Source: an uncultured Planctomycetales bacterium (GTDB lineage: Bacteria; Omnitrophota; Gorgyraeia; Aquiviventales; Aquiviventaceae). Taken from it: 58,360 nucleotides of DNA. Position 1 is the stretch's first letter; every line of letters begins with the position of its first letter. Shown in pieces: positions 2,313 through 58,360 of this stretch. The notes below the pieces were generated by a model. It searched no databases and was not told the DNA's origin. It was given only the letters and a program-made list of their open reading frames with translations. The stretch lies in assembly GCA_964373835.1 (NCBI GenBank), contig CAYJWN010000001.1, positions 1 to 58,360 on the forward strand, in the 5' to 3' direction. The position numbers and the translations under genes were made by a program.

Positions 2313-3203
2313 TCAGCGAATCAACTCTGCCGGTGCGAGCTCTGTGCGCACGTATTCGGCGACCGCTTCCTGCCACGGTCGCATGAAATTTAGTCCCAGC
2401 AGGTCCAGTTTCAAGTTGCGCAGGACTTCCGAGCGCGCGCGGGGCGCCGGCAGTGGAAATTCGTCTGAAGAAATCGGCGTCATGGCGACGTCCGGTCGTT
2501 GGAGCGCGTCCCGAACGGCCATCGCGACATCGTATCGAGAGCCGGAGCCTGGATTGGCTATATGGTAGAGGCCGTAATAGCCTGTCGACAGCAGCGTACG
2601 AATCCCCTTCAGCAGATCCTTCGCAAAGGTGGGGCTCCCCCATTTGTCATTCACCACCCGCAACGGATTCTTGCCCTCGAGAATCAGTCGGGTAATCTTG
2701 CCGACAAATTTCTTATCCAGCGGTCCGCCGCCAATCATCCAACTGGCTCGCACGATGTAGTAGCGTGACAGGAGGGACGCAACGATCTGCTCCCCTGCCA
2801 GCTTGGACTGGCCGTAGATGTTGGCGGGCCGCGGCGCATCAAACTCGGTGTACGGGTCTGGTTTATCACCCCAGAAGACGCCGGCCGTACTGATATACAC
2901 GAGGACCGCCCCGGAAGCCTGACACGCCAAGGCGATATTCTGCGTGCCAATCGCGTTCGTATGGTAGGCCCAGTCAGGCTCCTGCTCACAGCGATCCACG
3001 TCAGTCGCAGCCGCCAAATGAAGCACCACTTCGGGCTTCGCGGACGCCACAGCACTCATCACCGCCGAGGGATCACGGACATCAAGGGGCGCGAAGTCCC
3101 CGATCATGTCGGTTAAGAACAGCTCATCATCCACAAACACCTGGGGGACATAGCTGCCCACCATGCCACCCGCCCCTGTCACAAGCATCCGTCGCGCAGC
3201 CAC
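2313..3203 (-). CDS. RmlD-like NAD(P)-dependent sugar-nucleotide 4-ketoreductase (extended SDR)
   Basis: MLVTGAGGMVGSYV Rossmann motif and canonical YGQSKLAGE (YxxxK). GTG start at 3203 lies 4-6 nt after GGAGAGGAGGG. Confidence 0.7.
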   Translation of the reverse strand: MAARRMLVTGAGGMVGSYVPQVFVDDELFLTDMIGDFAPLDVRDPSAVMSAVASAKPEVVLHLAAATDVDRCEQEPDWAYHTNAIGTQNIALACQASGAVLVYISTAGVFWGDKPDPYTEFDAPRPANIYGQSKLAGEQIVASLLSRYYIVRASWMIGGGPLDKKFVGKITRLILEGKNPLRVVNDKWGSPTFAKDLLKGIRTLLSTGYYGLYHIANPGSGSRYDVAMAVRDALQRPDVAMTPISSDEFPLPAPRARSEVLRNLKLDLLGLNFMRPWQEAVAEYVRTELAPAELIR

Positions 3204-4776: not shown

Positions 4777-5802
4777 TCAGTCTGCCTGGAGACCAACAAG
4801 GGCTCGTGGCTCGGCATCCGCTCGACGTCGCTCCTGTCCCTGGTCGCGCTGGGCACTCGTCCACTGGATCGTTCGGCGCAGGCCCTCGTCAAAAGCCACC
4901 CGCGGGTGCCAGCCGAGCACCGCCCCGGCCTTTGAGGGGTCGCAGCACAGGCGCCAGGCTTCGTCCCGCCGTCCCTCAATCGCATTGACGCGGATCACCG
5001 CGCGACTGCCCATGAGGCGCCGAATGCGCTTCACGATTGCCAGCACCGAATAGTCTCGACCGCTGCCGATGTTGAAGGTCTCCCCGATGGCGCGCGGGTG
5101 CCCCGCGGCCCGAAGGCAGGCTTCCACCATATCCTCCACGTACGTGTAGTCTCTGGTCTGCCGCCCCGAGGTGATCTCGATATCCCGGCCTTCGAGAATC
5201 GCGCGGATCGTCGAGGGGATCAGCCGGTCGGGCCGCTCGTGGGGACCGAAGAACGTAAACAGCCTCAGGCTCACCGCCGGCAGACCGTGCCGCCGAGAGA
5301 AGAGGTCGGCCAGGTGTCCGGCGGCCGCCTTCGAGACCGCGTATTCGTTGAGCGGCCTGAGCGGATGGCGCTCCGAGAGCCGCGTCCGCTGGCTGCCATA
5401 CTCGAAGCAGGTGCCGGTGTGCACCACCCGCTCGACCCGCGATCCGATGAGCGACTCCAACAGATAGAGCGTGCCGAGCACGTTCGTTCCAAAGAGCAGC
5501 GACGGATCTGTGATGCGCGGATCGACACCGCAGGCTCCCAGGTGAAACACAATGTGCGGCTGCGTGCGTTCCACCGCCCGATGGATGTCCTGCCGGCTGC
5601 CCAAATCGCCGCGGACAACCTCCAGCCGGTCGGCACAGTCGTCCAGTGTAGCCAGGCTGGAGGAGGTGCGGCCCAGGACGACGACCTGCGCTCCCAGTTC
5701 GACCAGCTTTCTGACGAGGTGAGATCCCAGGAATCCCGTCCCTCCGGTCACAAGGACGCGTTTGTCGTGCATCGCGGCGGACTCGACCTCAGACGCGCTC
5801 AT
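4777..5802 (-). CDS. NAD-dependent sugar-nucleotide epimerase/dehydratase (extended SDR)
   Basis: VLVTGGTGFLGSHLVRKLVELGAQVVVLGR and YAVSKAAAGHL. Start is ambiguous: ATG 5802 overlaps the upstream stop by 14 nt, and ATG 5772 is the alternative. Confidence 0.7.
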   Translation of the reverse strand: MSASEVESAAMHDKRVLVTGGTGFLGSHLVRKLVELGAQVVVLGRTSSSLATLDDCADRLEVVRGDLGSRQDIHRAVERTQPHIVFHLGACGVDPRITDPSLLFGTNVLGTLYLLESLIGSRVERVVHTGTCFEYGSQRTRLSERHPLRPLNEYAVSKAAAGHLADLFSRRHGLPAVSLRLFTFFGPHERPDRLIPSTIRAILEGRDIEITSGRQTRDYTYVEDMVEACLRAAGHPRAIGETFNIGSGRDYSVLAIVKRIRRLMGSRAVIRVNAIEGRRDEAWRLCCDPSKAGAVLGWHPRVAFDEGLRRTIQWTSAQRDQGQERRRADAEPRALVGLQAD

Positions 5803-6568
5803 CAACAGGCTCACCCACAGCTTCCGTCTCCGGAACGGCGCGAGTGCTCCTCGCCTTCTGCGTGGCACCCCGGGCCGCGAGAAACCGCTGGGCGTTTTGA
5901 AGGAATTCAAAGACGGTGCTCAGCCGAACGGCTGACGCACCGCCCCTCCGCCGCAAATAGATGACGGGGACCTCCTTTACCCGCAAGCCGATCCGCTCGG
6001 CCTTGATCATCATCTCCGCATCAATAAACCAGTCGGTGGACACCAGCGCCAGCTGCTCGTAGACCTGCCGGCGCATCAGCTTTGGCATGGCGTTGATGTC
6101 CCGGCAGGAGATCCGAAACAGCCGCTGGAACAACCAGTTGTAGGCCATGCTTTGAATCCGTCGGCCGAGCCCGTCCCCCCGAACCACCCGGTAGGTTTTG
6201 ACGAGATCGTAGTGCCCCGTCGCCATCTCCCGCATGACCTGGACGAGGGCGTCCGGAGCCACCTGCCTATCACCGCACGTGAAGCCGCAGTAAGCCCCCC
6301 GGGCGTGCGCCAGGCCTGTCAGAATCCCGCCGCCGTAGCCCAGGTTGACCGGTGCGCGCACCATCTTGAGCTGCGAGAACTCCCAGGCCAGCCCTTCACA
6401 GATGGCGCCGGTCCGATCCGTCGAGCCATTGACGACGAGGATCAGCTCGTAGCGCCCTGCAAACGCGCCTTCCAACGCCTCGAGCAGCTCCTCCACGCTT
6501 CGCCCCACCACCGCCTCTTCGTTGTACAGGGGGATGACGATGGAAAACTCGGGAACGGATGCGGTCAT
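5789..6568 (-). CDS. GT2 glycosyltransferase, polyprenyl-phosphate sugar synthase-like (DPM1/ArnC-like soluble core)
   Basis: FSIVIPLYNEEAVVGRSVEELL, LVVNGSTDRTG, GDRQV. ATGA overlap with the upstream stop at 6565-6568. Confidence 0.7.
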   Translation of the reverse strand: MTASVPEFSIVIPLYNEEAVVGRSVEELLEALEGAFAGRYELILVVNGSTDRTGAICEGLAWEFSQLKMVRAPVNLGYGGGILTGLAHARGAYCGFTCGDRQVAPDALVQVMREMATGHYDLVKTYRVVRGDGLGRRIQSMAYNWLFQRLFRISCRDINAMPKLMRRQVYEQLALVSTDWFIDAEMMIKAERIGLRVKEVPVIYLRRRGGASAVRLSTVFEFLQNAQRFLAARGATQKARSTRAVPETEAVGEPVDERV

Positions 6569-8811
6569 GTCGCGGTGTGGAGGCCGACGACCTGGGCTGA
6601 GGCATGCTGGGCAAAAAAGGCTCGGAACCGTTCCAGGATGAAGCCGAGCATTTCGTCCGTCAGTCCGGGGTAGACGCCGATGAAGAAGGCGTTCCGCATA
6701 ATGGTGTCCGACTGTGCGAGTTCTCCATGGATGCGGCAGGCGATGTGGCGATAGCCGGGCTGGCGGAGGATATTGCCTCCGAACACCACGCGCGTCTCAA
6801 TCTTGGCGCTCTCCAGCCACTGCACCAGCGCGTCGCGCGAGACGCCCGGCCTGACGGTGATCGGAAACCCGAACCAAGACGGGTTGGCGCGGGGATCCAG
6901 CCGCGGCAGGATGAGCGCGTCCTCGTACGACGCCAGCCCTTCATAGAGGCGGCGGAAATTCCGCCGCCGCGCCTCAACAAATGCCGGCAGGCGATCGAGC
7001 TGGGCCACCCCAATGGCCGCCTGCAGATCCGTCGGCTTGAAGTTGTAGCCAAGGTTGGAGTAGATGTACTTGTGATCATACCCCCGCGGCAGGTCGCCGA
7101 GCTCCCAGCCGAACCGCTTGCCGCAGGTGTTGGATTCTCCGGGCGCGCACCAGCAGTCCCGGCCCCAGTCACGCACGGACCGAACGATCCGTGACAGCCG
7201 GGGCGCGTTGACCACCACCGCGCCGCCCTCCCCGGTCGTGATCTGATGCGCCGGGAAGAAACTCAAGGTGCCCAGTTCGCCGAACGTCCCCACGAGCTGC
7301 CCTCGGAATGTCGCCCCCAAGGCGTCACAACAGTCTTCAACCAAATAGAGGTGATGGCGGCCGGCGATCTCGCCAATGATGTCCAGGTCGCAGGGGTTGC
7401 CCAGCGTGTGCGGGATCATGATGGCCCGCGTCTTGTCGGAGATCGCGTCTTCGATGCGGTGGGGGTTGATGTTGTAGGTCCCCACCTCGCAATCGACGAA
7501 CACGGGGATGAGCCCGCTGTGGACGAGGGGGGCCAGGGTCGTCGGGAACGTGACGGCGGGGGTGATGACTTCGTCGCCCGCCTGAAGGGAGCGCTCCAGC
7601 TGCTTTGACATCAGAGCCAGGATGACCGTGAGGTTCGCGGTGGAACCGGAGTTCACCATGACCACATCGCGAGCGCCGAAAAACCGTCTCATGTTCTGTT
7701 CAAAGACGTCCCCATACGGCCCGAGGGTCAACCAGAAATCCAGCGCACTGTCGGTGAGGTTGACCAGCTCCTCCTCGCCGAACACCCGCCCCGCGTACTG
7801 GATGTGCGTCTGGTACGGGACGAAAGGCTTGGGGGCATGCACGCGCTGATAGTAGCGCCGCACGCTCTCGAGGATCTCCTGCTTCAGTGGATCCTGCGTT
7901 GACGGGTGGCTGCGCTGCGCGAACGTCACGTGGGTGTCGGCCCGCCAGTGTCGGCGAAACCGTTTCAGCGACTCGTTCAGATCGAGCGGTTCCGTCCCAA
8001 GCAGGCGCGTCAACTTCTCGCTCTTCAGCACCCCTCCCGAGCCCGCGGCCCGCGGCGCTCCCTGCGCGTCGGGCACGACCGTGATCCGGGCGGCATCCAA
8101 CGCCATTGCGCTGGCCAGGGCTCGCATCAACGCCGCCTCGGAGAGCCGCTCCTTTCCGATGACGTGCACCGTGCCCTCCACCCCCATGCGGACCAGTCGG
8201 ACGCCGGCTTCCGCCAGGTAGTCCACCAGCGTCGGGTGGCACCACTGGCTGCCGGCTGGTGAGAGGCGCCGGCCCGCCTGGAGCGCCCGCCAGACGGTCA
8301 TCGCGACATTCTCGGAAGCCCGGTCCCAGCCGAACGCCACCGAGGTGCGCACAATGAGATGGCGGGATGCCAGGGTGCGAACCGCCTGTTCCGCCTCCCA
8401 TCGCAGCTGACCGTAACGGCTCACCGGAGCCGGAGGAGCCTCTTCGGAGCAGAGTTCCTTGGCGCCCTCAAACACCCGCTCGGTGGAGTAATACACGAGC
8501 GTGGCGCCGTACCGGGAGGCGGTGCGAGCCGCATGCGCGATGCCGTCCCCGTAGAGCGCCTCGGCTTCCTCAAGAATGGTATCGCCTCCCCGCGTCCGCT
8601 CGCCGGGCGTCCTGACGGCCACGAAGACCACCTCCGGTCTGACCGATCCAACGCACGCGCTCACCGCCCTGGCATCTCTCAAGTCCAGCGGGAGGAGTCC
8701 CGTACCGGCTCGCGAACATCCCGTGCCGGCGACCTGGACGCCGTCCCGCTCCAACGCGCGGACGATGGCGCCGCCGATAAATCCTGACGCCCCAATGACC
8801 AACGCCTTCAC
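6565..8811 (-). CDS. rfbH: Fusion protein: N-terminal RmlD/epimerase-like SDR domain plus C-terminal RfbH/DdhC-type CDP-4-keto-6-deoxyglucose 3-dehydrase (E1)
   Basis: N-terminal domain: VKALVIGASGFIGGAIVRAL, with YGQLR where YxxxK is expected. C-terminal domain: NSGSTANL, FFPAHQITTGEGG (His at the position of the aminotransferase Lys), and Cys spacing C-X57-C-X-C-X7-C (DCC...RDCWCAPGESNTC). Start set to GTG 8811, about 6 nt after GGAGG. The ORF-track first 41 aa are rejected. Confidence 0.8.
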   Translation of the reverse strand: MKALVIGASGFIGGAIVRALERDGVQVAGTGCSRAGTGLLPLDLRDARAVSACVGSVRPEVVFVAVRTPGERTRGGDTILEEAEALYGDGIAHAARTASRYGATLVYYSTERVFEGAKELCSEEAPPAPVSRYGQLRWEAEQAVRTLASRHLIVRTSVAFGWDRASENVAMTVWRALQAGRRLSPAGSQWCHPTLVDYLAEAGVRLVRMGVEGTVHVIGKERLSEAALMRALASAMALDAARITVVPDAQGAPRAAGSGGVLKSEKLTRLLGTEPLDLNESLKRFRRHWRADTHVTFAQRSHPSTQDPLKQEILESVRRYYQRVHAPKPFVPYQTHIQYAGRVFGEEELVNLTDSALDFWLTLGPYGDVFEQNMRRFFGARDVVMVNSGSTANLTVILALMSKQLERSLQAGDEVITPAVTFPTTLAPLVHSGLIPVFVDCEVGTYNINPHRIEDAISDKTRAIMIPHTLGNPCDLDIIGEIAGRHHLYLVEDCCDALGATFRGQLVGTFGELGTLSFFPAHQITTGEGGAVVVNAPRLSRIVRSVRDWGRDCWCAPGESNTCGKRFGWELGDLPRGYDHKYIYSNLGYNFKPTDLQAAIGVAQLDRLPAFVEARRRNFRRLYEGLASYEDALILPRLDPRANPSWFGFPITVRPGVSRDALVQWLESAKIETRVVFGGNILRQPGYRHIACRIHGELAQSDTIMRNAFFIGVYPGLTDEMLGFILERFRAFFAQHASAQVVGLHTAT

Positions 8812-8854
8812 GTCACCCCTCCAGCCTGCACGACGCTGAGAGCCACATCGCGGG

Positions 8855-9850
8855 TCACGCGACCTCCCGCACGCTGCCCAGCAGCGCGGCACGGTACCAT
8901 GCAATGGTGTCCTGGAGCCCGGCCTCCAGGTCAAAGTGGGCCGTCCAGTCGAGGAGCTTGCGCGCCTTCGCCGCGGAGAGGTGCTGCGACCGGATTTCCC
9001 CGGTTGTGTCGTTTCGGATCTCTGGCGGCAGGTGCGCGCACCCCACGAGCCGCTGGATCACCTCCACGACCTCCAGGACGGTCAGAGGCGTTTCCGTGCT
9101 GAAGTTGAACGCTTCACCCCAGAGCCGCTCATCCTCGAGGCGCTCGGCCAGCCGAAGGTAGGCGAGGCTTGCGTCTCGCACGTAGAGGTAGTCTCGCACG
9201 TACTGCCCGTCGCTGCGAATCACCGGCCGCTCGCCAAACAGGAACGCGCGGATGGTCCCCGGTACGAGACGGCTCCAGTTCACATCGCCGCCACCATAGA
9301 CGTTGCCGCACCGGGCGATGGCCACCGGCAGGCCATAGGTGTGGTGATAGGCCTGGGCGAGCAAATCTGCGCAGCTTTTCGACACTTCATACGGATGCCG
9401 GCCTTGGAGCGGCATCGTTTCGGTATAGGGCAGCTGGTCCTGTGCGCCGTACGCTTTGTCGCTGGAAGCAATCACGACCCGTTTGAGGAGGCCGCGGTGC
9501 CTGCGGCAGGCCTCGAGGAGATGGTACGTGCCGCGGATGTTCGCTTCGAAAGTCGCCAGAGGCGCGCGGTGGGCTGCCCCGACAATAGTTTGAGCGCCCA
9601 AGTGAAAGACCGCCTCGACCTCATGCCCGTTGATGGCGCGCTCCACGGCCTCAAAATCTTCCAGCGAACCGTTCACAACCCCCACGTGCTGGATGGCCCC
9701 GCTGCGGTAGAGCTCCGACTGGGGATCCGCGTCGAGCACGAGCGCCACCACCTCAGCGCCCTGCTCGAGCAGGTCCTTCACCAGCCAGGACCCGATGACT
9801 CCCGTCGCTCCCGTGACCAAGACTCGACGCCCGCTCCAAAACGCCGTCAT
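8855..9850 (-). CDS. rfbG: CDP-glucose 4,6-dehydratase
   Basis: [28 protein letters not shown] is a typical RfbG N-terminus; [10 protein letters not shown] (YxxxK). ATGA overlap with the rfbF stop at 9847-9850. Confidence 0.85.
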
Positions 9851-10632
9851 GCCGCCTCCGCCTTGGCTGCCGCTCTCCAGGGAGCCTTGCCGCTGGCCCA
9901 CAACTGTTCCAGGAGTCGAAGGTCGCGCAGCGTATCCATGCACTGCCAGAAGCCGGTGTAGCGGTAGGCGACGAGTTGGCCGTCCTTCGCGAGTCGCTCC
10001 ATCGGCTCCCGCTCAAAAATGGTGTCATCCCCTTCCAGATAGTCCAGCACCTCTGGCTCCAGGACGAAAAACCCGCCGTTGATCCAGCCTTCGTTAATCT
10101 GCGACTTCTCGCTGAATTCCGCGACGAGGTCGCCGTCGAAGAGCAGGCCGCCGAAGCGGGCCGGCGGGCGCACGGCGGTCACCGTGGCCCATTTGCCGTG
10201 GGCGCGGTGAAAGCGGAGCAGCTCCTGGAGGCTGACGTCGCAGACCCCATCGCCGTAGGTCATCATGAAGGTCTCCTGGCCAAGCCACGGCGCCAGACGC
10301 TTGAGTCGGCCGCCGGTCTGGGTCGTCAGTCCGGTATCGACGAGGTGCACGGTCCAGTCCTCGGTCTCGCCGTCGTGCGTCGTCACGACCCCTTCCTTTA
10401 ACGACACGGTGAGGTTGCTGTAGAGGCGGTGGTAGTCGAGGAAGTACCGCTTGATCTCCCCCCCCTTGTAGCCCAGCGCAAGGACGAAGTCCGTCAGCCC
10501 GTAGGCCGCATACCCCTGCATGATGTGCCAGAGGATCGGCTGCCCTCCAACCTCGACCATGGCTTTGGGGCGAAACTCGGTCTGCTCTTGGAGTCGTGTG
10601 CCCTGTCCCCCACAGAGAATGACAGTTTTCAT
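9847..10632 (-). CDS. rfbF: Glucose-1-phosphate cytidylyltransferase
   Basis: [48 protein letters not shown] 10632 is preceded by GGGAGGAG with an 8-nt spacer. Confidence 0.9.
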
Positions 10633-10647
10633 CGATCGCACTCCTCC

Positions 10648-11640
10648 CTATGCTTGCCGAGCAGGCTGACCCGCCGAGCGATCCGCTGTGAACCGGTCTT
10701 CGCCCTGTGTCGATTCCCGGGCAAACCAATCAACGATGTGTTGCGCCGCGCGCAGCTCCATCGCCGCCCGCGAGGCTCTGGTTAAGGTCGCCACGTGCGG
10801 CGTACACAGGACCTGGGGCAGGCGCGCGAGCGGCCCGTCATACGGCTCCGCCTCAAACACGTCGAGCGCGGCACCCGCCAGATGTCCAGACGTCAATGCC
10901 TCGTAGAGCGCGGTCTCATCCACCAGGAACCCGCGCGCGGTATTCACCAGCAAGCTCCCGGATTTCATCTGTCGAAATTCCGCCCGACCAATCAGCGGGC
11001 CGTCCGCTGGCTGGCGGCTCGCATGGAGAGAAACAACGTCCGCCTCAGCCAAGAGGGTGGCAAGATCCCTGCGGGCCACGCCGGGCGGGACCGCATCCGC
11101 CGTCACCGCCGGATCAGCGATGAGGACGCGCGGCCCAAAGGGCGCGAGCAGGCGGGCCACCGCTCTGCCGATCCTCCCGAAGCCGACGAGCCCGATCGAC
11201 CATTCACCCAACAGAAACCCGGTACGCTTCTTCCATTGACCGGCCCGCATGTCGGCCAGATGCCAGGGGACATTTCGCGCCAGGGCCAAGATCATCGCCA
11301 CCGTCATCTGCGCCACGGGCTCCACGACTTCGTCGATGGTCGTAAACACCGCCACACCGAGATCCCGAGCCGCCTTCAGGTCAATGGCGTCGGTCCCGAC
11401 CCCGCAGCGACTGAGACAGCGCAGCTGCGGCAGCGCCCGCAACAGCTCGCCGGGATAGGGCTCAACCCCCGCAATCACCGCGTCCGCCCCCCGCAGAGCG
11501 TCGGCCATCACCTCAGGCCGCAGCCGGCGGCCCAGCGTATTGCCTCGAACCTCGCACCCGGCCGCCCGCAAGAGCTGGCGCGGGCGCTCGTCCTCCTCAC
11601 AGAACTGCTGGAGGGCCACGTACACAGTTCTTCCCTTCAT
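10648..11640 (-). CDS. D-isomer-specific 2-hydroxyacid dehydrogenase (PGDH-like)
   Basis: GLVGFGRIGRAVARLLAPFG, NTARGFLVDETALYEAL, GAALDVFEAEP. ATGA overlap at 11637-11640. Confidence 0.8.
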   Translation of the reverse strand: MKGRTVYVALQQFCEEDERPRQLLRAAGCEVRGNTLGRRLRPEVMADALRGADAVIAGVEPYPGELLRALPQLRCLSRCGVGTDAIDLKAARDLGVAVFTTIDEVVEPVAQMTVAMILALARNVPWHLADMRAGQWKKRTGFLLGEWSIGLVGFGRIGRAVARLLAPFGPRVLIADPAVTADAVPPGVARRDLATLLAEADVVSLHASRQPADGPLIGRAEFRQMKSGSLLVNTARGFLVDETALYEALTSGHLAGAALDVFEAEPYDGPLARLPQVLCTPHVATLTRASRAAMELRAAQHIVDWFARESTQGEDRFTADRSAGQPARQA

Positions 11641-12416
11641 GTGTGGGCGATCTCCCGCAGGACGGCATGCTGCGCCGGATCGTCATCCAGGCAAGCCTGC
11701 ACGAGCTCGACTTCTCGGGGTTCGTTGATCCCCCGGTAGCTCTTACTGAACTCCACGCTGCGCAGCGCGATATCGTGTTCGATGATGCGCGATTGATCAA
11801 TGGCCGAAGCCTCTTCAATCGGTGTTCGACGTAACTCCGCGTAGCGGCTCAAGAAGTCCCGGCGGTATCCCAGGATCCCCAGGATCGCGCGCACCGCCCC
11901 GAAACCCGGCCGGTCACTGAAGGCCGCGTGCGAAAGGTCGCGGGCGCAGTAGAGGATTCGGCCGGATACCGACACGACGCATTTGACGATGGCGTGATCG
12001 CTCAGCTCCGACGACGCCTCAAGCCGGGCGACCGCGTTCCACGCGCAGACGTCCGGCTCCGCCGTCATCGCTTCCACCATCCGCTGCAGGTCGCTGGGCA
12101 GCACGAGGAGCTCGTCGCCCTGCACGTTCACCACGTGCGTGCAGTCCACCTGCTGCGCCGCCTCGGCCACCCGGTCGGTCGCCGCCGGATGATGCGCGGC
12201 GGTCATGACGACGCGGCCGCCGAAGCGCCGAACCACCTGAGCGATTTCCTCATCGCAGGTGGCCACGACGACCTCCGTAAATCCGCGGCAGAGGACCGTG
12301 CGCCGTCGAACGTGCTCGATCATCGGCAGTCCTCCCACCTCAAGCAGCGGCTTGCCTGGAAAGCGGCTTGAGGCCAGGCGGGCCGGGATGATGGCGGCGA
12401 TCCGAACGCGGCTCAT
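11637..12416 (-). CDS. KdsB-family CMP-(3-deoxy-2-ulosonic acid) cytidylyltransferase
   Basis: IAAIIPARLASSRFPGKPLLEVGGLPMIEHV, VNVQGDE and GILGYRRDFL align by eye with E. coli KdsB (IIPARYASTRLPGKPL, VNVQGDEP, GIYGYR). ATGA overlap at 12413-12416. Confidence 0.75.
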   Translation of the reverse strand: MSRVRIAAIIPARLASSRFPGKPLLEVGGLPMIEHVRRRTVLCRGFTEVVVATCDEEIAQVVRRFGGRVVMTAAHHPAATDRVAEAAQQVDCTHVVNVQGDELLVLPSDLQRMVEAMTAEPDVCAWNAVARLEASSELSDHAIVKCVVSVSGRILYCARDLSHAAFSDRPGFGAVRAILGILGYRRDFLSRYAELRRTPIEEASAIDQSRIIEHDIALRSVEFSKSYRGINEPREVELVQACLDDDPAQHAVLREIAHT

Positions 12417-14011
12417 GCTGACTGCGGCGCGGCGCCGGCCGCCAGGGTCCCCTTCATCACCACGTGCGTGAACAGTGCCAACAGCGGTATCACATAGGGG
12501 CTGACCTGGACGAAATACCGCCCGTTCTCGCAACACGCCATATTGACGGCCAGGCTTCCCACCACGACGCCGGCGATCGCCGAGGCCATCGCACGTTCCT
12601 GCGTCGAGAGCGGCGCCGGGCTGCGGGCGCGACGTCCGCCCTCGGCCCGCCGCCACCGCGGAAGCCAGCGCCACAACAGACGCAGCAGCAGCCAGTAAGT
12701 CGCCAGGTACCCCTGCAGCAGCAACACCCCGCAGAGCCCACTGGCCCCGAGGAGCGCCTCCTTCCACGGCAACCAGGGAAGCAATTGGATGTCCTGCTGA
12801 GATTTATCCTTCAAGAGTAACGACAGCGTGCGCCACCCATCGACCAGATAGATGTAGTGCGTACGCAGCAGCTGCTTCAGGAACAGCAGCGGGTTGCGCG
12901 TCACGAAGATCCGAAACAGGTGCGTTGAGATGCGACTGTATTCGGCGGCGATGCGCGGCGACATCTCGGGCACCATGAAGGAGCGTAGGTAGGGGCGGCT
13001 GCTCAGGCGCGCGCGATCGGCCGCCACGATCTGCGCCACCCGGCGCTCCCCGTGCGCCTCCATGCACGCCTGCAGCGGGATGAAATCGAATGCCCTCTCG
13101 GGCGAACCCTCTTGCATGTAACAGGTCCCGTAAAACGGCCCCATCACCTCGACCCGTTTGGCGCGTTCGTAGCACCATAGATACCAATCCGGCGCGCCGG
13201 AGGTCCGGGCAAACGCCGCCAGTCGATCCTGGTCATAGCCGTAAGCCGCCCACATGAATTGGGCGACGTTCACCCCAGCCAGACTACTGGGCAAGAAACT
13301 CCCAACGGAGAGCACGTTTTTCGCGCTCAGCGCCAGAGCCACCACAAGAGGACCCGCCAACGCGACCGCGGTCCGCTGCCACCGCCTTGCGCGGGGTGCC
13401 TCCAACAACCACGTGGTGATGAGGATGATCACGGCGGTCGTGATAAACGCGACCTTCTGGAAGAGCACCAGGACCGCTCCGGTGATCGCCACAAGCCCAT
13501 CCTGTCGGAAGCCGCTGCCGGCGACTCTCCTCATCACGGCCCACGCAAAACACGCCACGAGCCCCACCGTATAGTGATCCAGCGTCGACCCCCCGTGCCA
13601 AAGCTCCAGAGGGATCAGGCCAAGGGAATAGATCATGGTCATCGTCCAGCCGAACCCTCGCCCTGCCCCAACCCGTCTGGCCATGGAATAGACCAGGACC
13701 ACCGCCACGCTGTTGAGGAGGAAGCCGGGCACGGGAACCCAGGTCACAAACGCACGACCGGGCCCGACGAGATGCAGCAGGACCTTGTGAATCAAAAACA
13801 TCCCGGGAGGCTGCGTATGGTCATAAAACAGATACTCCCAGAAGTGGTCCTTGAGCGCTTGGAGATAGGACTCCAGTACTTGGTCGACGGGGACCATCGC
13901 CTCCGCTGGCATACGGCTCCAGTACAACAACCGCACGCCCAACGAGAGGCTGAACAGCAGGAGTTCAGGCCATCGTCTCGACCACATCGACCGCTCCGGG
14001 GTTCGCCTCAT
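12413..14011 (-). CDS. Polytopic membrane protein, possibly a GT-C-fold glycosyltransferase or polymerase
   Basis: Many hydrophobic spans at both ends, with a soluble middle segment of about 150 aa. ATG 14011 is preceded by GGAGAG. I recognise no diagnostic motif. Confidence 0.45.
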   Translation of the reverse strand: MRRTPERSMWSRRWPELLLFSLSLGVRLLYWSRMPAEAMVPVDQVLESYLQALKDHFWEYLFYDHTQPPGMFLIHKVLLHLVGPGRAFVTWVPVPGFLLNSVAVVLVYSMARRVGAGRGFGWTMTMIYSLGLIPLELWHGGSTLDHYTVGLVACFAWAVMRRVAGSGFRQDGLVAITGAVLVLFQKVAFITTAVIILITTWLLEAPRARRWQRTAVALAGPLVVALALSAKNVLSVGSFLPSSLAGVNVAQFMWAAYGYDQDRLAAFARTSGAPDWYLWCYERAKRVEVMGPFYGTCYMQEGSPERAFDFIPLQACMEAHGERRVAQIVAADRARLSSRPYLRSFMVPEMSPRIAAEYSRISTHLFRIFVTRNPLLFLKQLLRTHYIYLVDGWRTLSLLLKDKSQQDIQLLPWLPWKEALLGASGLCGVLLLQGYLATYWLLLRLLWRWLPRWRRAEGGRRARSPAPLSTQERAMASAIAGVVVGSLAVNMACCENGRYFVQVSPYVIPLLALFTHVVMKGTLAAGAAPQSA

Positions 14012-15845
14012 TTGAGGGGACTCTCCGCATAATCGTGAAGTCTCTGATGGACGTCTCGACGGTATAGGGAAACCCCGGCGCCCCGCGGAGCCATCCTGCT
14101 TTCACCGTCGGCACCACCAGGTAGTCAGGCGACCCAAGCGCCGTGAGACAGCTCGAAACACCCGCCCAGTTGTGCGCTTCCCAGCTCGCGATCAGGCCCT
14201 CCTGCTGGGAGGTCTGATCGAGGAACCAGAGCTGTTTCGGGTAATCGAAGTAGAAGGCGATTGAATTTCCAGCCGGCATGGTGCGACCTGTTCTGATTTT
14301 CAGCGACGGATCGATATACAACCCTTTCCGACTGAAGGGGTAGATGCGCTCCGCGAGGGCCAAGACTGTCGCCGTGGGAGGAGTGTGATATCGGATGTAC
14401 TCATTCACCCCGACCCATTTCGCCCCAGGGGAATCGCCCATGATGCCGTGGGCAAACAGGAACCGGAGGTCCGGAGCCCGTTTGTAGACCACCCGTGCGT
14501 GGTAGAGCACGGTCGCCACGATGAAGGACAGGAGGAGCACGGTCGTTCTGGGGCTCGCCAACGTCGCCGCCCAGGTCCTTCCGAACGGACGGCGGATCCG
14601 CCGGATGAGCATCACGATTCCGGCGCTCACCCCGCACGCGAACAGCCACAATGCTGCCCGCTTCAGGAAGACCGGCGAGAGCCGCACGGTGGAATACTCA
14701 AAGAACGGGATGAGATACAGGGCGATGAGGATGGCCGCCCCCCAGAGCCTGCCGCGCCGCGCCCCCTGCATCAGCCACGTCATGGCCGCACAAGCCACCA
14801 CGGTGTAACTGAGCACCTGCGGCCACCAGGTGGACCGGTTCACCGCAAGCGCCTGGAGGAACGGGATCTTGATGGCGTCCGGCGCAAACGTGTAGTAGAC
14901 CCCACCGCCCAAGAACATCACCAAGGCGACGGCAAAAAACGCTTGGGCTCTCTCCCTGAGCTCCGGTGAGGGATACGGAACCATCATCGCCCCGATCAGC
15001 AACAGCAGATAGAGGTAGTTGCCGATGCCTCGCTCCAAATACGGGTTCGCTTCACTATTTTCGATCCACGCGACCGCGTGATCGAACACGAGTGCCGGCA
15101 CAGGGTCACCTCGATGCAGTAGAAAAAAAACCAGAAAGATACCCCCAAGGCTCACCGCCACCCCCACAGCGATGAACCGCCACCGCACGTGCCAGCGGTC
15201 CCGGACCGCGAAGAGCAGCGTGACCAGCGCCGGATACCACCCGTTTTTTACGGACAGCAGCCCCATGAACAGGCTGAGCGCCAGGGCGGCCCTCGCGCGG
15301 TATCCCCTGAACAGCCAGAGGGCCAGCAGGATCGCCAGGGGGCTGATGAACGTCGTCGCGCTGTGATTGTGCGCGGGAACAAGCATGGCCAGGTTGTCCT
15401 TGAACTGATGCGGGATCGCGAGTAGAGCGATGATCGCCAGCCGCTGGAGCCTGCCCTGCACGCCCAAGAGAGCGATGATCCGGTCGACGCTGAAGATGGC
15501 CAGGAACGCCAGGCCGAAGTAACACACGAAATGGAGCCGGTCATCCAACCACGCCTCCCCGACCAGATGGGCCGCCACATAAAAGAACGACATGAGCGTA
15601 GGCTGCCTGCCGGTCACGTACTGGTCGCCGGAGAAGCTCTCGAGATGGATCGCCTTGAAGGCGTTTCCCATATAGCCGCTGTGCTGCTCCAACGCGCAGA
15701 AGAAGGCCAAGGTATAGAGCACGGCAAACCCGAGGAGAGCGGCGACGTGGAGTACCAACGCGCGATGAGATTCCGCCGGAGCACGGACCGCCCACCTACT
15801 CTCCGCCCAGGATGACACGTGTCCCGCGGTACCGGTCTTCAGCAT
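13965..15845 (-). CDS. Polytopic membrane protein (about 12-14 TM plus a C-terminal soluble domain), possibly a GT-C-like transferase or polymerase
   Basis: Repeated hydrophobic helices through about aa 480, then a soluble tail. ATG 15845 forms a TAATG overlap with the upstream radical SAM stop. No WWDYG (PglB) motif is present. Confidence 0.45.
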   Translation of the reverse strand: MLKTGTAGHVSSWAESRWAVRAPAESHRALVLHVAALLGFAVLYTLAFFCALEQHSGYMGNAFKAIHLESFSGDQYVTGRQPTLMSFFYVAAHLVGEAWLDDRLHFVCYFGLAFLAIFSVDRIIALLGVQGRLQRLAIIALLAIPHQFKDNLAMLVPAHNHSATTFISPLAILLALWLFRGYRARAALALSLFMGLLSVKNGWYPALVTLLFAVRDRWHVRWRFIAVGVAVSLGGIFLVFFLLHRGDPVPALVFDHAVAWIENSEANPYLERGIGNYLYLLLLIGAMMVPYPSPELRERAQAFFAVALVMFLGGGVYYTFAPDAIKIPFLQALAVNRSTWWPQVLSYTVVACAAMTWLMQGARRGRLWGAAILIALYLIPFFEYSTVRLSPVFLKRAALWLFACGVSAGIVMLIRRIRRPFGRTWAATLASPRTTVLLLSFIVATVLYHARVVYKRAPDLRFLFAHGIMGDSPGAKWVGVNEYIRYHTPPTATVLALAERIYPFSRKGLYIDPSLKIRTGRTMPAGNSIAFYFDYPKQLWFLDQTSQQEGLIASWEAHNWAGVSSCLTALGSPDYLVVPTVKAGWLRGAPGFPYTVETSIRDFTIMRRVPSNEANPGAVDVVETMA

Positions 15846-56038: not shown

Positions 56039-56462
56039 GAAGCTCCTGCGAAATGAACGCCATCTTCTTGTGGAACAACGTCTCCTCCAGGGCTCTCAGG
56101 TCAGCCGAGTCCATGAAGTCGCGGTACGCGAAGGCCTTATACTCAAGAAAGTCCAACGGCTCACCATACAGCAGGGTTCCGCCGCTGAGGATCTCGTACC
56201 GGAACAACGGATCGGCTTGGCGCAGCAAGACCACATCCACCTCGTATCCAGCAAAGACATCCGACAACGCCTGGGAGGCGGCCCCCCACCACTCCAGGCT
56301 TCCGTCGCTGCGCCCAACGAGTGCGAGGTCCACGTCACTTTCTGGTCCTGGCGGCGGTGTCCCAGTGGAGCGCGATCCGTACAGGATGACCAGTTGAAGC
56401 CCCAGCTCTTGGCAGACGCGCTCCAGACGTTGCGCGTCATAGCTGACAAACGGCGAGGTCAT
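56025..56462 (-). CDS. Minimal nucleotidyltransferase (MntA-type antitoxin-like), now orphan
   Basis: [26 protein letters not shown] (GS...DxD NTase motif). ATG 56462 forms an ATGA overlap with the UXS stop (56459-56462). Confidence 0.7.
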
Positions 56463-58360
56463 CTGGTGCTCAAAGCGGCAAACCAACCCATCGTGACGGA
56501 AAGCCCCTCCTGTAAGCTGACGCGCGGTCGCCAGCCGTTTAGCAGCCGCGTGGCCACCGTGATATCAGGACAGCGCTGCTTCGGGTCATCCTGCGGCAGG
56601 GGGCGAAACACGATCGGGCTCTTGCTGTTCGTCAACTCGAGGATGCGCTGAGCGAGCGCAAGAATCGTGTACTCCTCAGGATTGCCGAGGTTGACAGGGT
56701 CGTGATAGTCGGCCCGGGTCAGCCGGACAATTCCCTCGACCAGATCGTCAATATAGCAGAAGGAGCGGGTTTGGCTGCCGTCGCCAAACACGGTCAGGGG
56801 TTCCCCGCGGAGCGCTTGGGTGACGAACGCGGGGATTGCGCGGCCGTCTTCGGCTCGCATCCGTGGACCGTACGTGTTGTGGCAAAATACCCCATTCCCT
56901 GCCACGAAATTTTCAGTACCCGGAACGGAGAAGTCGTACACAAAGTTCGTCGGCTCGCAGGGTTCGATCGCGGTAATTTTCGACCAGATCAAATCGCCGG
57001 TTCGCGTGGCGTTGAGGGTTTGCCGAACGCCGGTATCCCACCGTAAGACGTCAAAGGAATCCACCTCGCAGACCGTGACTCTGAAAAACGGAAACCGACG
57101 ATCGCCGTATCGTTGACGAAACCTGGTCGTATACTGTCCTACGGAAGCCACGATCCCAAAACGCAGCAAAAGATACGTCAGATCGGTCGCCAGCTCTTCG
57201 CTCGTGGTGCTGAAGCACAATTCGTTACCGAGTTTTTTCCCACTGTGGGTCCCATCGCCTTCCCGGTAGCCCTCCAAGACATGCTTGACACGAGAGAGCG
57301 GCAACTGCATCACCCACGCTGGAATTCTCTTGTCGCGGAGCACACCGATCATCTCATCGAAGAGCACATACAACAGCTGCGAATGCACAAACAACCCAGG
57401 AGCACGCTGGCGGCTGGCCGGAACCATGACCGTGTGACACCCAAGACCGGTGAGAATCGCTGCGGCCCGATCGAGGAACACCTGGTCCGAGGAGAATGTC
57501 AACAAGGCACTCTTGCCGGGTTGACGATGTGACGAGCCCTCAGCCAAAAAGAACCCAATCAGCCAGAGGAGGTCCGATGTCAGCGGGATCGTGGCTGGAA
57601 GCCGAATACGCGCTCCACCTTTGTAGACACGCAGCTGGGCATCAGACGGAATGGCCACACCCAATCGACGAACCACCGCAAGGGGCAACATCCCTTCGCG
57701 CCAGTACTTCCGCAAAGCGCACGAGAGGCCGTTGTTGAGTCGCTTCGCATGGAATCTGTTGCTAGCAGCCAAGAAGGTACGGATCTCCCCACGACGACGC
57801 TCGATGACCTGCCGCAGTGAGGGGGAGTGGATGGCATAATTCCACAAGGCGTCTTCGGATCGTCGTTGCATCAGTACTTCAGCCAGATGGAACGCCTCCA
57901 CGTCCTTTTCAACGACAGGAACACGCGCTGGAATCGCGACGTAATCACCCACTTGTAGCTGTCGGACAGGAATAGCGGTTGGCTGGCTATGTGCGTCCCT
58001 CGTAAACACGCTATGATCCCCCGTCACCTTGACCCTCCTGCCGTACCGAAGAGACAGGGCGTAGCAGTCCGTGTGACAGGGGTGCTTAATCATTGCGCTG
58101 ACGGGCGCAAGTGAAATTTGACACGTCACTGGATCAAACGTCGGCACCAAGATGCTGGGAGACTCGAGCGCCAACCGTGACTCCACTCGGTTCACGTAGG
58201 TTCCGATCGGTTCAAGATGCATATCATGATCGTTAAAAAGCATCACGGTCTCATCCGCGAGGATGCTGTTAAAGATCCTGACGATGCGCGTATCGACGCC
58301 ATGCGCCCGGTGATAGGCCATCGTCATGGCTTCGGCGAATCGCTTCGCCTCGTCGTAGAC
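56459..58360 (-). CDS. UDP-glucuronate decarboxylase (UXS)/extended-SDR dehydratase-like gene, 5-prime partial (continues beyond the window), interrupted by an intein
   Basis: The reading frame is open to the window edge: [31 protein letters not shown] | intein | [49 protein letters not shown]...[15 protein letters not shown]. The Rossmann N-terminus lies outside the window. Confidence 0.85.
56876..58267 (-). mobile_element. Full-length intein (464 aa) with LAGLIDADG homing-endonuclease domain
   Basis: The intein splits the conserved RIFN|TYGPRM motif. Block [11 protein letters not shown] (Ser1), block [11 protein letters not shown] (TxxH), LAGLIDADG-like [12 protein letters not shown] and [12 protein letters not shown], blocks [25 protein letters not shown], followed by Thr+1. 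Codon positions were verified on the nucleotide sequence (aac 56878-56876, acg 56875-56873). Confidence 0.85.

Follow-up and report, generated by a model that had tools for sequence, protein, structure and literature searches.

A probable pseudo-reductase domain fused to the 3-dehydrase E1 in a CDP-3,6-dideoxyhexose module of an uncultured Planctomycetales bacterium

As O-antigen sugars, 3,6-dideoxyhexoses are textbook material. The 3-dehydrase E1 of Salmonella and Yersinia works with a dedicated partner reductase, E3; to our knowledge, the biosynthesis of these sugars is known almost solely from these two genera. In the ascarylose pathway, AscE is the 5-epimerase and AscF the 4-reductase, the latter performing a step analogous to that of RmlD (dTDP-4-dehydrorhamnose reductase). 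The E3 gene is located within the ddh module in both Salmonella and Yersinia (PMC5399914; Salmonella record), and in the ascarylose branch ddhDABC is followed by ascE and ascF (PMC5399914). SpnQ, which acts as the 3-dehydrase for TDP-4-keto-2,6-dideoxyglucose in Saccharopolyspora spinosa, works without a dedicated E3, drawing its electrons from general ferredoxin/ferredoxin-reductase or flavodoxin systems (PMC8987622). Here we describe a module of this kind on a 58,360-nucleotide contig (CAYJWN010000001.1 of assembly GCA_964373835.1, positions 1 to 58,360, the whole of which is called the window below) from an uncultured Planctomycetales bacterium placed by GTDB in the Omnitrophota (Aquiviventaceae), in which RfbH, that is E1, carries a fused N-terminal domain of the RmlD-like short-chain dehydrogenase/reductase (SDR) type. 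The fusion gene is a member of a widespread, uncharacterised family with an RmlD/AscF-type 4-ketoreductase in front of a CDP-4-keto-6-deoxyglucose 3-dehydrase E1. What is specific to the present case is that the reductase domain, judged by its residues, appears to be retained, constrained and catalytically degenerate, one of apparently at least nine independent cases.

The minus-strand frame 6565..8934 is open throughout, with no internal stop in a scan of open reading frames (ORFs), and the likely start of the gene is a GTG at 8811 with a GGAGGGG Shine-Dalgarno sequence six bases before it, giving a protein of 748 amino acids (aa). In this protein, the RmlD-like SDR domain is followed by a short linker and a complete RfbH/E1 domain; Pfam RmlD_sub_bind matches residues 43-326 of ORF 6565..8934 (119.5 bits), which is about the first 285 residues of the 748-aa protein, and DegT_DnrJ_EryC1 matches residues 387-767 of the same ORF (291 bits). 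In the Logan assembly of run ERR4904390, a 13.9-kb contig is base-for-base the same as window positions 5519..11811 and yields the same 748-aa gene call, with no stop or frameshift at ~7.9 kb. The N-terminal fusion of an SDR to RfbH, proposed in an initial annotation made from the letters of this DNA, is thus borne out by the single ORF, the two Pfam domains, the second assembly and the homologues described below. We give practically no credence to an assembly or frameshift artefact joining two genes, given the identical sequence from a second assembler, the junction and preceding conserved helix common to more than 120 independent homologues, and an Arg137 codon (CGA) that is at least two base changes from either Lys codon.

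The fusion is not unusual: it belongs to a large family whose members come from several bacterial phyla as well as from archaea, and a survey of SDR-RfbH architectures gave at least 120 protein clusters, which is a lower bound for family size, as well as ~45 further metagenome loci matching the whole junction in a metagenome scan with the junction region. The best 120 database matches all have two domains (PF04321 and PF01041) and are ~735-770 aa long, or ~1100 aa with an intein, and their source labels include Omnitrophica, Chloroflexi, Rokubacteria, Vicinamibacterales and a Thermoplasmatota archaeon. A profile search of genome contigs with the SDR-domain alignment returned mainly generic RmlD genes along with at least three fusion loci (L022-L024), while the representative library, being clustered at 50%, collapses fusions and gives no family size. 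For gene-context comparisons, 49 fusion loci with flanks of up to 10 kb were used. Generally, a single ORF of ~740 aa encodes the SDR domain, a helix ESLKRFRRxWRADT and then E1, a layout to which the window protein conforms. In the E1-domain tree, all fusions group in a single clade (support 0.955) that includes the window protein, which sits with the canonical members (support 0.978), those in which T-D-Y, YxxxK and the other RmlD motifs are kept. The fusion is absent from the 60 relatives of the window genome that were searched, and therefore the fused gene probably arrived by transfer into a lineage already using a stand-alone SDR. Moreover, a search of the representative library with the SDR domain returned stand-alone proteins of ~300 aa that share 40-43% identity, have their motifs intact and end in the same helix, and the existence of such counterparts indicates that the fused domain originated as a separate reductase gene. 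No description of an RmlD-like::E1 fusion was found in the literature searched. Among the homologues, the ~1100-aa proteins P0063, P0074 and P0088 carry a ~350-aa intein (Pfam LAGLIDADG_3 and Intein_splicing) inserted at query residues 552-556, within the C-x-C of the E1 [2Fe-2S] motif, and in P0121 (636 aa) the same type of SDR with an RFRRHWRADTH helix is fused to a second extended SDR instead of E1.

The E1 domain of the window protein is well conserved, departing from the family at just one of the 178 columns that are at least 95% conserved (family median 2), with a mean identity to the family of 71% (72% among the other members). It scores 638.6 bits against the NCBIfam RfbH equivalog NF011936 (cut-off 423; profile positions 5-438 of 440), and its 444 aa can be aligned over their full length with E1 of Yersinia (PDB 3BCX/3BB8, E 1.5e-146). 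The initial annotation had read a His-for-Lys change and a C-X57-C-X-C-X7-C spacing in the dehydrase, and both were recovered: FFPAHQITTGEGG, with His522, aligns to FYPAHHITMGEGG of 3BCX, and the spacing Cys495-X57-Cys553-X-Cys555-X7-Cys563 was counted exactly by script, the four cysteines being invariant in 64 members of the fusion family. The His-for-Lys change, the cluster motif and an upstream rfbF and rfbG are therefore shared with E1 of Yersinia and Salmonella (AscC/DdhC/RfbH; CDP-6-deoxy-L-threo-D-glycero-4-hexulose 3-dehydrase), whereas the window protein has an extra 300-aa N-terminal SDR domain, has no E3 (DdhD/RfbI) gene that could be found in its module or genome, and belongs to an uncultured lineage whose genome is small. 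SpnQ is alike in being an E1 homologue with pyridoxamine 5'-phosphate (PMP) and [2Fe-2S] and no dedicated E3; however, it is unfused and acts on a TDP substrate in a secondary-metabolite pathway, while the window protein is an RfbH equivalog accompanied by a CDP-forming RfbF. A cluster-free 3-dehydratase of the ColD type was also considered and ruled out, as all four Fe-S cysteines are present; ColD structures score far below E1 structures against this domain (207 vs 493 bits).

Family-wide, the fused SDR domain is an RmlD-type reductase with strong conservation: across 114 aligned members, Gly7, Gly10 and Gly13 occur in every sequence that includes the N-terminus, S109 never varies, and D111, Y112, Y133 and K137 occur in 113, 109, 113 and 110 members, respectively. 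The window domain is the most deviant member, being changed at 17 of the 62 columns that are at least 95% conserved (family median 1), with a mean identity to the family of 49% compared with 61% among the other members. The changes include D111E, Y112R, D115E, G119E-P120L-Y121C, K137R, T157S, D188S, T248D and R257G-P258S, so that the canonical STDYxFDG, YGxxK, GGVDxCE and RP loop of the family are not found in it. An hhalign comparison with Salmonella RmlD (278 columns, probability 99.9%) equates Y133 and K137 with Y128 and K132 of that enzyme; of its catalytic triad T104/Y128/K132, Thr110 and Tyr133 are kept and the Lys equivalent is Arg137, while the lost positions fall in RmlD motifs (the VDxxE region, T104-D105-Y106, K132, NDQ and SRP). 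The domain thus shares the RmlD_sub_bind fold and keeps the Rossmann GxxGxxG as GASGFIGG (residues 7-14), but it differs from RmlD in the Arg for the catalytic Lys, in the lost D-Y of STDY, NDQ and SRP, and in its fusion to E1, and its score against the rmlD equivalog TIGR01214 (106 bits) is below the cut-off of 224. YGQLR does replace YxxxK at residues 133-137, as first annotated; as a trait of the SDR-RfbH architecture, however, the altered motif does not hold, K137 being present in nearly all aligned members, and YGQLR appears to be specific to the window sequence and a few other lineages.

Within the family, the active site has been lost repeatedly. Tyr133 or Lys137 is missing in 14 of 136 non-identical fusion proteins, and these degenerate fusions occupy at least nine separate places in the E1-domain tree. 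In ten representatives of degenerate lineages, the same 17 positions are lost, all with a conservation of at least 90% among canonical members. None of the ten retains Y112 or K137, while D74, T157 and T248 each survive in one and R257 in two; several degenerate lineages are also without the nucleotide-binding glycines. In these representatives, conservation of at least 90% persists at 49 of 88 positions, the C-terminal helix RFRRxWR included, and the ratio of nonsynonymous to synonymous substitution rates (dN/dS) of the degenerate SDR domains is 0.12, 0.21 and 0.23 in three close pairs, values that are rough because dS is near saturation in the two most divergent pairs, yet clearly below 1; a further near-identical pair has too few changes to be informative. 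Because active-site positions are lost while other positions are conserved and dN/dS is below 1, selection on the degenerate domain as a reductase seems to have gone while selection on it as a protein continues. The window and its degenerate relatives may be regarded as a natural experiment, in which the reductase half was inactivated repeatedly and never discarded, which suggests a second, structural function and offers a pseudo-enzyme case amenable to clean testing.

A precedent for a non-catalytic RmlD fold is MAT2B, the regulatory beta subunit of human methionine adenosyltransferase 2, whose role is regulatory and binding rather than catalytic. Among solved structures, it is the nearest in sequence to the window SDR domain (PDB 2YDX and 4NDN, E ~1e-16), although MAT2B is unfused, has unrelated partners and resembles the window domain at the fold/family level only. 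In an AlphaFold2 monomer model of the fusion protein built on 64 family sequences (mean predicted local distance difference test, pLDDT, 84; predicted template modelling score 0.63), both domains are well folded and the SDR domain has mostly high pLDDT, the low-confidence segments being residues 72-78 and 250-258, which are lost-motif regions, the linker 294-304 and the cluster loop 550-588. The initial annotation had offered two options for the SDR domain, channelling of the 3-deoxygenated product to reduction or a non-catalytic scaffold. With 17 of 62 conserved columns changed, the scaffold option fits the window protein better; channelling to reduction is plausible for canonical members and unlikely here.

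Candidates for a reductase that would replace the fused domain lie in the window. The fusion gene shares ATGA, its stop overlapping the ATG of a downstream family 2 glycosyltransferase (GT2) gene, and beyond that gene lies a stand-alone extended SDR (4777..5772), which shares 37% identity (303 aa, its whole length) with the SDR that immediately follows rfbH on a plasmid of Azospirillum. Homologues of this SDR adjoin E1 in two relatives (G039 and G036) and in the loci L113, L118 and L121; relatives of the window genome have rfbF, stand-alone rfbH and rfbG followed by an SDR of this type, while in L118 and L121 it stands between an RmlC-like gene and a degenerate fusion, and among ~35 canonical loci it was found solely in L113. 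It is therefore a candidate reductase or epimerase for CDP-4-keto-3,6-dideoxyhexose, one that probably carries out the reduction of the 4-keto sugar and would make the fused domain redundant; its presence may have relaxed selection on the reductase site of the fusion. A possible second candidate is the RmlD homologue at 2313..3203, which belongs to the same co-directional string of genes. In the loci of G039 and G036 (L199 and L200), E1 stands before the 4,6-dehydratase, an order unlike that of the window and of enterobacteria.

Upstream, the initial annotation had placed rfbF and rfbG beside rfbH, which was upheld for rfbF by a score above the equivalog cut-off and an identical Logan gene call; the rfbG-like gene does lie directly upstream of the fusion, but its product scores under the TIGR02622 cut-off and shares 33% identity with Salmonella RfbG and 59-61% with its RfbG counterparts in relatives. 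Many canonical loci run from rfbF through rfbG and a small RmlC-like gene (149-160 aa) to the fusion, mirroring the gene order of the ascarylose branch. In the window, the gap between rfbG and the fusion is just 43 bases and the module is without an RmlC-like gene; the genome's single RmlC gene is located in an rml operon on another contig. As for the GT2 protein, its weak best matches are polyprenyl-phosphate sugar transferases (ArnC, PgfS and AglJ), all NCBIfam scores being far under the cut-offs. The features of the module are collected in Table 1.

Table 1. Positions in the window of the fusion gene, its domains and motifs, and the neighbouring genes
Feature	Position	Strand	Remarks
Fusion gene, RmlD-like SDR + E1/RfbH 3-dehydrase	6565..8811	-	748 aa + stop; GTG start
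SDR domain, aa 1-293	7933..8811	-	Rossmann GASGFIGG; ends in conserved helix ESLKRFRRHWRADT
STERVFEG (family: STDYxFDG)	8467..8487	-	
YGQLR (family: YGxxK), residues 133-137	Y133 8413..8415; R137 8401..8403	-	
E1 domain, aa 305-748	6568..7899	-	NF011936, 3BCX/3BB8 alignment
His522 (replaces Schiff-base Lys)	7246..7248	-	Motif FFPAHQITTGEGG
[2Fe-2S] ligands	Cys495 7327..7329; Cys553 7153..7155; Cys555 7147..7149; Cys563 7123..7125	-	
rfbF/ddhA, glucose-1-phosphate cytidylyltransferase, 261 aa	9847..10632	-	TIGR02623 353.9 bits vs cut-off 300
rfbG/ddhB-like CDP-glucose 4,6-dehydratase, 331 aa	8855..9850	-	Best NCBIfam TIGR02622 212.7 bits, cut-off 278
GT2 glycosyltransferase	5789..6568	-	PF00535 87.5 bits; translationally coupled to fusion
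Stand-alone extended SDR, ~331 aa, YAVSK	4777..5772	-	PF01370 191 bits; two genes downstream of fusion
Stand-alone RmlD homologue, 296 aa, YGQSK	2313..3203	-	TIGR01214 243.5 bits vs 224; PF04321 242.7 bits

The electron supply of E1 was approached with Salmonella RfbI (324 aa, Fer2-FAD-NAD) as the E3 probe, which was recovered from the unannotated rfbC-rfbF gap in the Salmonella record. The initial annotation had found no E3 in 58 kb; none was found in the window with Pfam profiles and RfbI tblastn, nor was any E3 or ddhD/ascD homologue found in the whole genome (93.65% complete, 184 contigs) with PF00970, PF00175 and RfbI tblastn. Genome-wide, PF00970 and PF00175 each matched solely a 235-aa protein on contig C77 that resembles ferredoxin-NADP+ reductase (FNR) and is without a ferredoxin (Fer2) domain, and the same protein was the sole RfbI tblastn match, over RfbI residues 90-305. 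No E3-specific model was among the best 25 of the 28 NCBIfam matches of FNR-like proteins. Since 18 of 18 same-family relatives carry stand-alone orthologues, nearly all in frames of ~240-290 aa, the C77 protein appears to be a core protein that has no ferredoxin domain. A ferredoxin domain hidden in the open frame at the C77 end was considered and rejected, as the orthologues in the 18 relatives start at about the same point; the first 18 residues of that open frame at the end of C77 (7854) recur identically at C31:2-55, the start of C31, and contigs C77 and C31 probably abut. No flavodoxin was found in the genome, and a 106-aa plant-type [2Fe-2S] ferredoxin is encoded on contig C33 beside a Rieske oxygenase, in a tight string (L005, 251..2764) of a 395-aa protein of unknown family, the ferredoxin and the 341-aa Rieske-type oxygenase.

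The lack of a detectable E3 extends beyond this genome. Neither five relatives with stand-alone RfbH nor three genomes carrying a canonical fusion gave a match to the ferredoxin part of RfbI, and no canonical E3 was found in any of the 49 fusion loci. The missing E3, which had been linked to the fusion at first, is not tied to it, because relatives with stand-alone RfbH are also without E3; its absence seems to be general in the E1-bearing genomes and loci compared. Electrons would still be required by E1, because its four cluster cysteines are invariant in the family, and their simplest source is likely the split pair of the 235-aa FNR-like protein and the 106-aa ferredoxin. In one metagenomic lineage (L168 11352..12041, L178 5376..6149, L179, L180 and L181), a 230-aa FNR-like gene that has no ferredoxin domain and matches RfbI residues 95-319 with ~22% identity lies directly downstream of stand-alone RfbH and is a possible short E3.

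These observations also bear on whether the fused SDR itself replaces E3, passing NAD(P)H equivalents to the PMP-glucoseen or docking the electron donor. Fusion and E3 absence do coincide throughout the family, and the domain is kept under constraint despite its lost reductase residues; nevertheless, an SDR contains neither a flavin nor a metal centre through which single electrons could pass, the invariant cluster cysteines indicate that E1 still depends on its cluster, the unfused RfbH of relatives is likewise without E3, and the nucleotide-binding glycines are lost in several degenerate lineages, which makes such a replacement highly improbable. A different proposal is that E1 cannot do without the RmlD-like domain as a non-catalytic partner in this family, be it for folding, for dimer architecture or as a docking surface through which general ferredoxins supply electrons in place of E3. 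If true, this would explain why at least nine lineages keep the domain under purifying selection after losing the reductase site, and we put it forward as speculative and quite doubtful.

We therefore favour, with moderate confidence, a pathway with an intact E1, general redox donors, a retained pseudo-reductase domain and a stand-alone finishing SDR. RfbF and RfbG would produce CDP-4-keto-6-deoxy-D-glucose, from which the intact E1 domain, with PMP and [2Fe-2S], would remove the 3-hydroxyl, its cluster being fed by general redox proteins instead of a dedicated E3, as in SpnQ; the C77 FNR-like flavoprotein and the C33 ferredoxin, matching the two halves of E3, are the candidate donors. The fused SDR domain, minus its catalytic Lys and ~16 family-invariant positions, would no longer reduce and would persist as a folded, constrained pseudo-enzyme module whose role is probably structural, while the 4-keto product would be finished by the SDR at 4777..5772 and the finished sugar passed to the coupled GT2. 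The locus as a whole is an uncharacterised variant of a known pathway. Its architecture and motifs, the pattern of lost and kept residues, the lack of an E3 gene and the gene contexts were observed directly; that reductase activity is lost, which proteins donate electrons, which SDR finishes the sugar and where the sugar goes are inferred. Among uncultured bacteria and archaea, the common arrangement thus differs from that of Salmonella and Yersinia, E1 being fused to the finishing reductase and no E3 gene being found, and the present locus supplies candidate donors for E1 reduction outside enterobacteria.

Several observations weigh against this pathway. Tyr133, Ser109, Thr110 and GASGFIGG (GxxGxxG) survive in the SDR domain, and Arg can partly stand in for Lys in some SDRs, so that residual reductase activity is possible. 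Together with the confident folding of the domain in the AlphaFold2 model and the canonical members, which are very probably bifunctional, with RmlD motifs intact and an RmlC-like gene often directly upstream, this would suit a domain that is still an active 4-ketoreductase with Arg137 for Lys, in a bifunctional protein releasing the finished CDP-3,6-dideoxyhexose. We consider an active domain rather unlikely: K137R is accompanied by 16 other near-invariant changes (D111E, Y112R, D115E, the GPY segment, T157, D188, T248 and R257-P258 among them), lineages in which the catalytic Tyr and Lys are gone altogether have lost these positions too, and a stand-alone SDR of the type accompanying unfused E1 lies two genes downstream. 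Some degenerate loci, such as L116, have no replacement SDR within ~9 kb, and an RmlC-like gene accompanies the fusion in 2 of 9 degenerate and 12 of 20 canonical lineages, a trend that is not significant (p ~0.1 after clustering). In addition, the AlphaFold2 monomer shows no confident inter-domain contact and has a linker pLDDT below 50; since the model gives no such contact, it is the retention of the domain and dN/dS that argue for a structural role.

On the side of the electron donor, the C33 ferredoxin adjoins a Rieske oxygenase and may be dedicated to that oxygenase. The genome is 93.65% complete in 184 contigs, so that a canonical E3 (DdhD/RfbI/AscD) in the unassembled part, with a classical electron supply, could have been missed. 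This is nonetheless improbable, considering that no match to the Fer2 part was found in the five RfbH relatives and the three fusion genomes, that none of the 49 fusion loci with their flanks holds an E3, and that, where Salmonella and Yersinia have the E3 gene in the ddh module itself, the window is the whole 58-kb contig around the module.

Elsewhere in the window, two large membrane proteins are encoded on the minus strand upstream of the module (12413..14011 and 13965..15845), with no Pfam match at E<=0.001 and no phmmer similarity to the PMT_2 proteins found after the fusion in L006 and L020. At the far end of the contig, a gene for a putative SDR of the UDP-glucuronate-decarboxylase type (56459..58360, minus strand) runs off the contig end and seems to have a large intein-like insert; in its translation, the insert of ~470 aa follows the host sequence ...RIVRIFN, after which the host sequence resumes.

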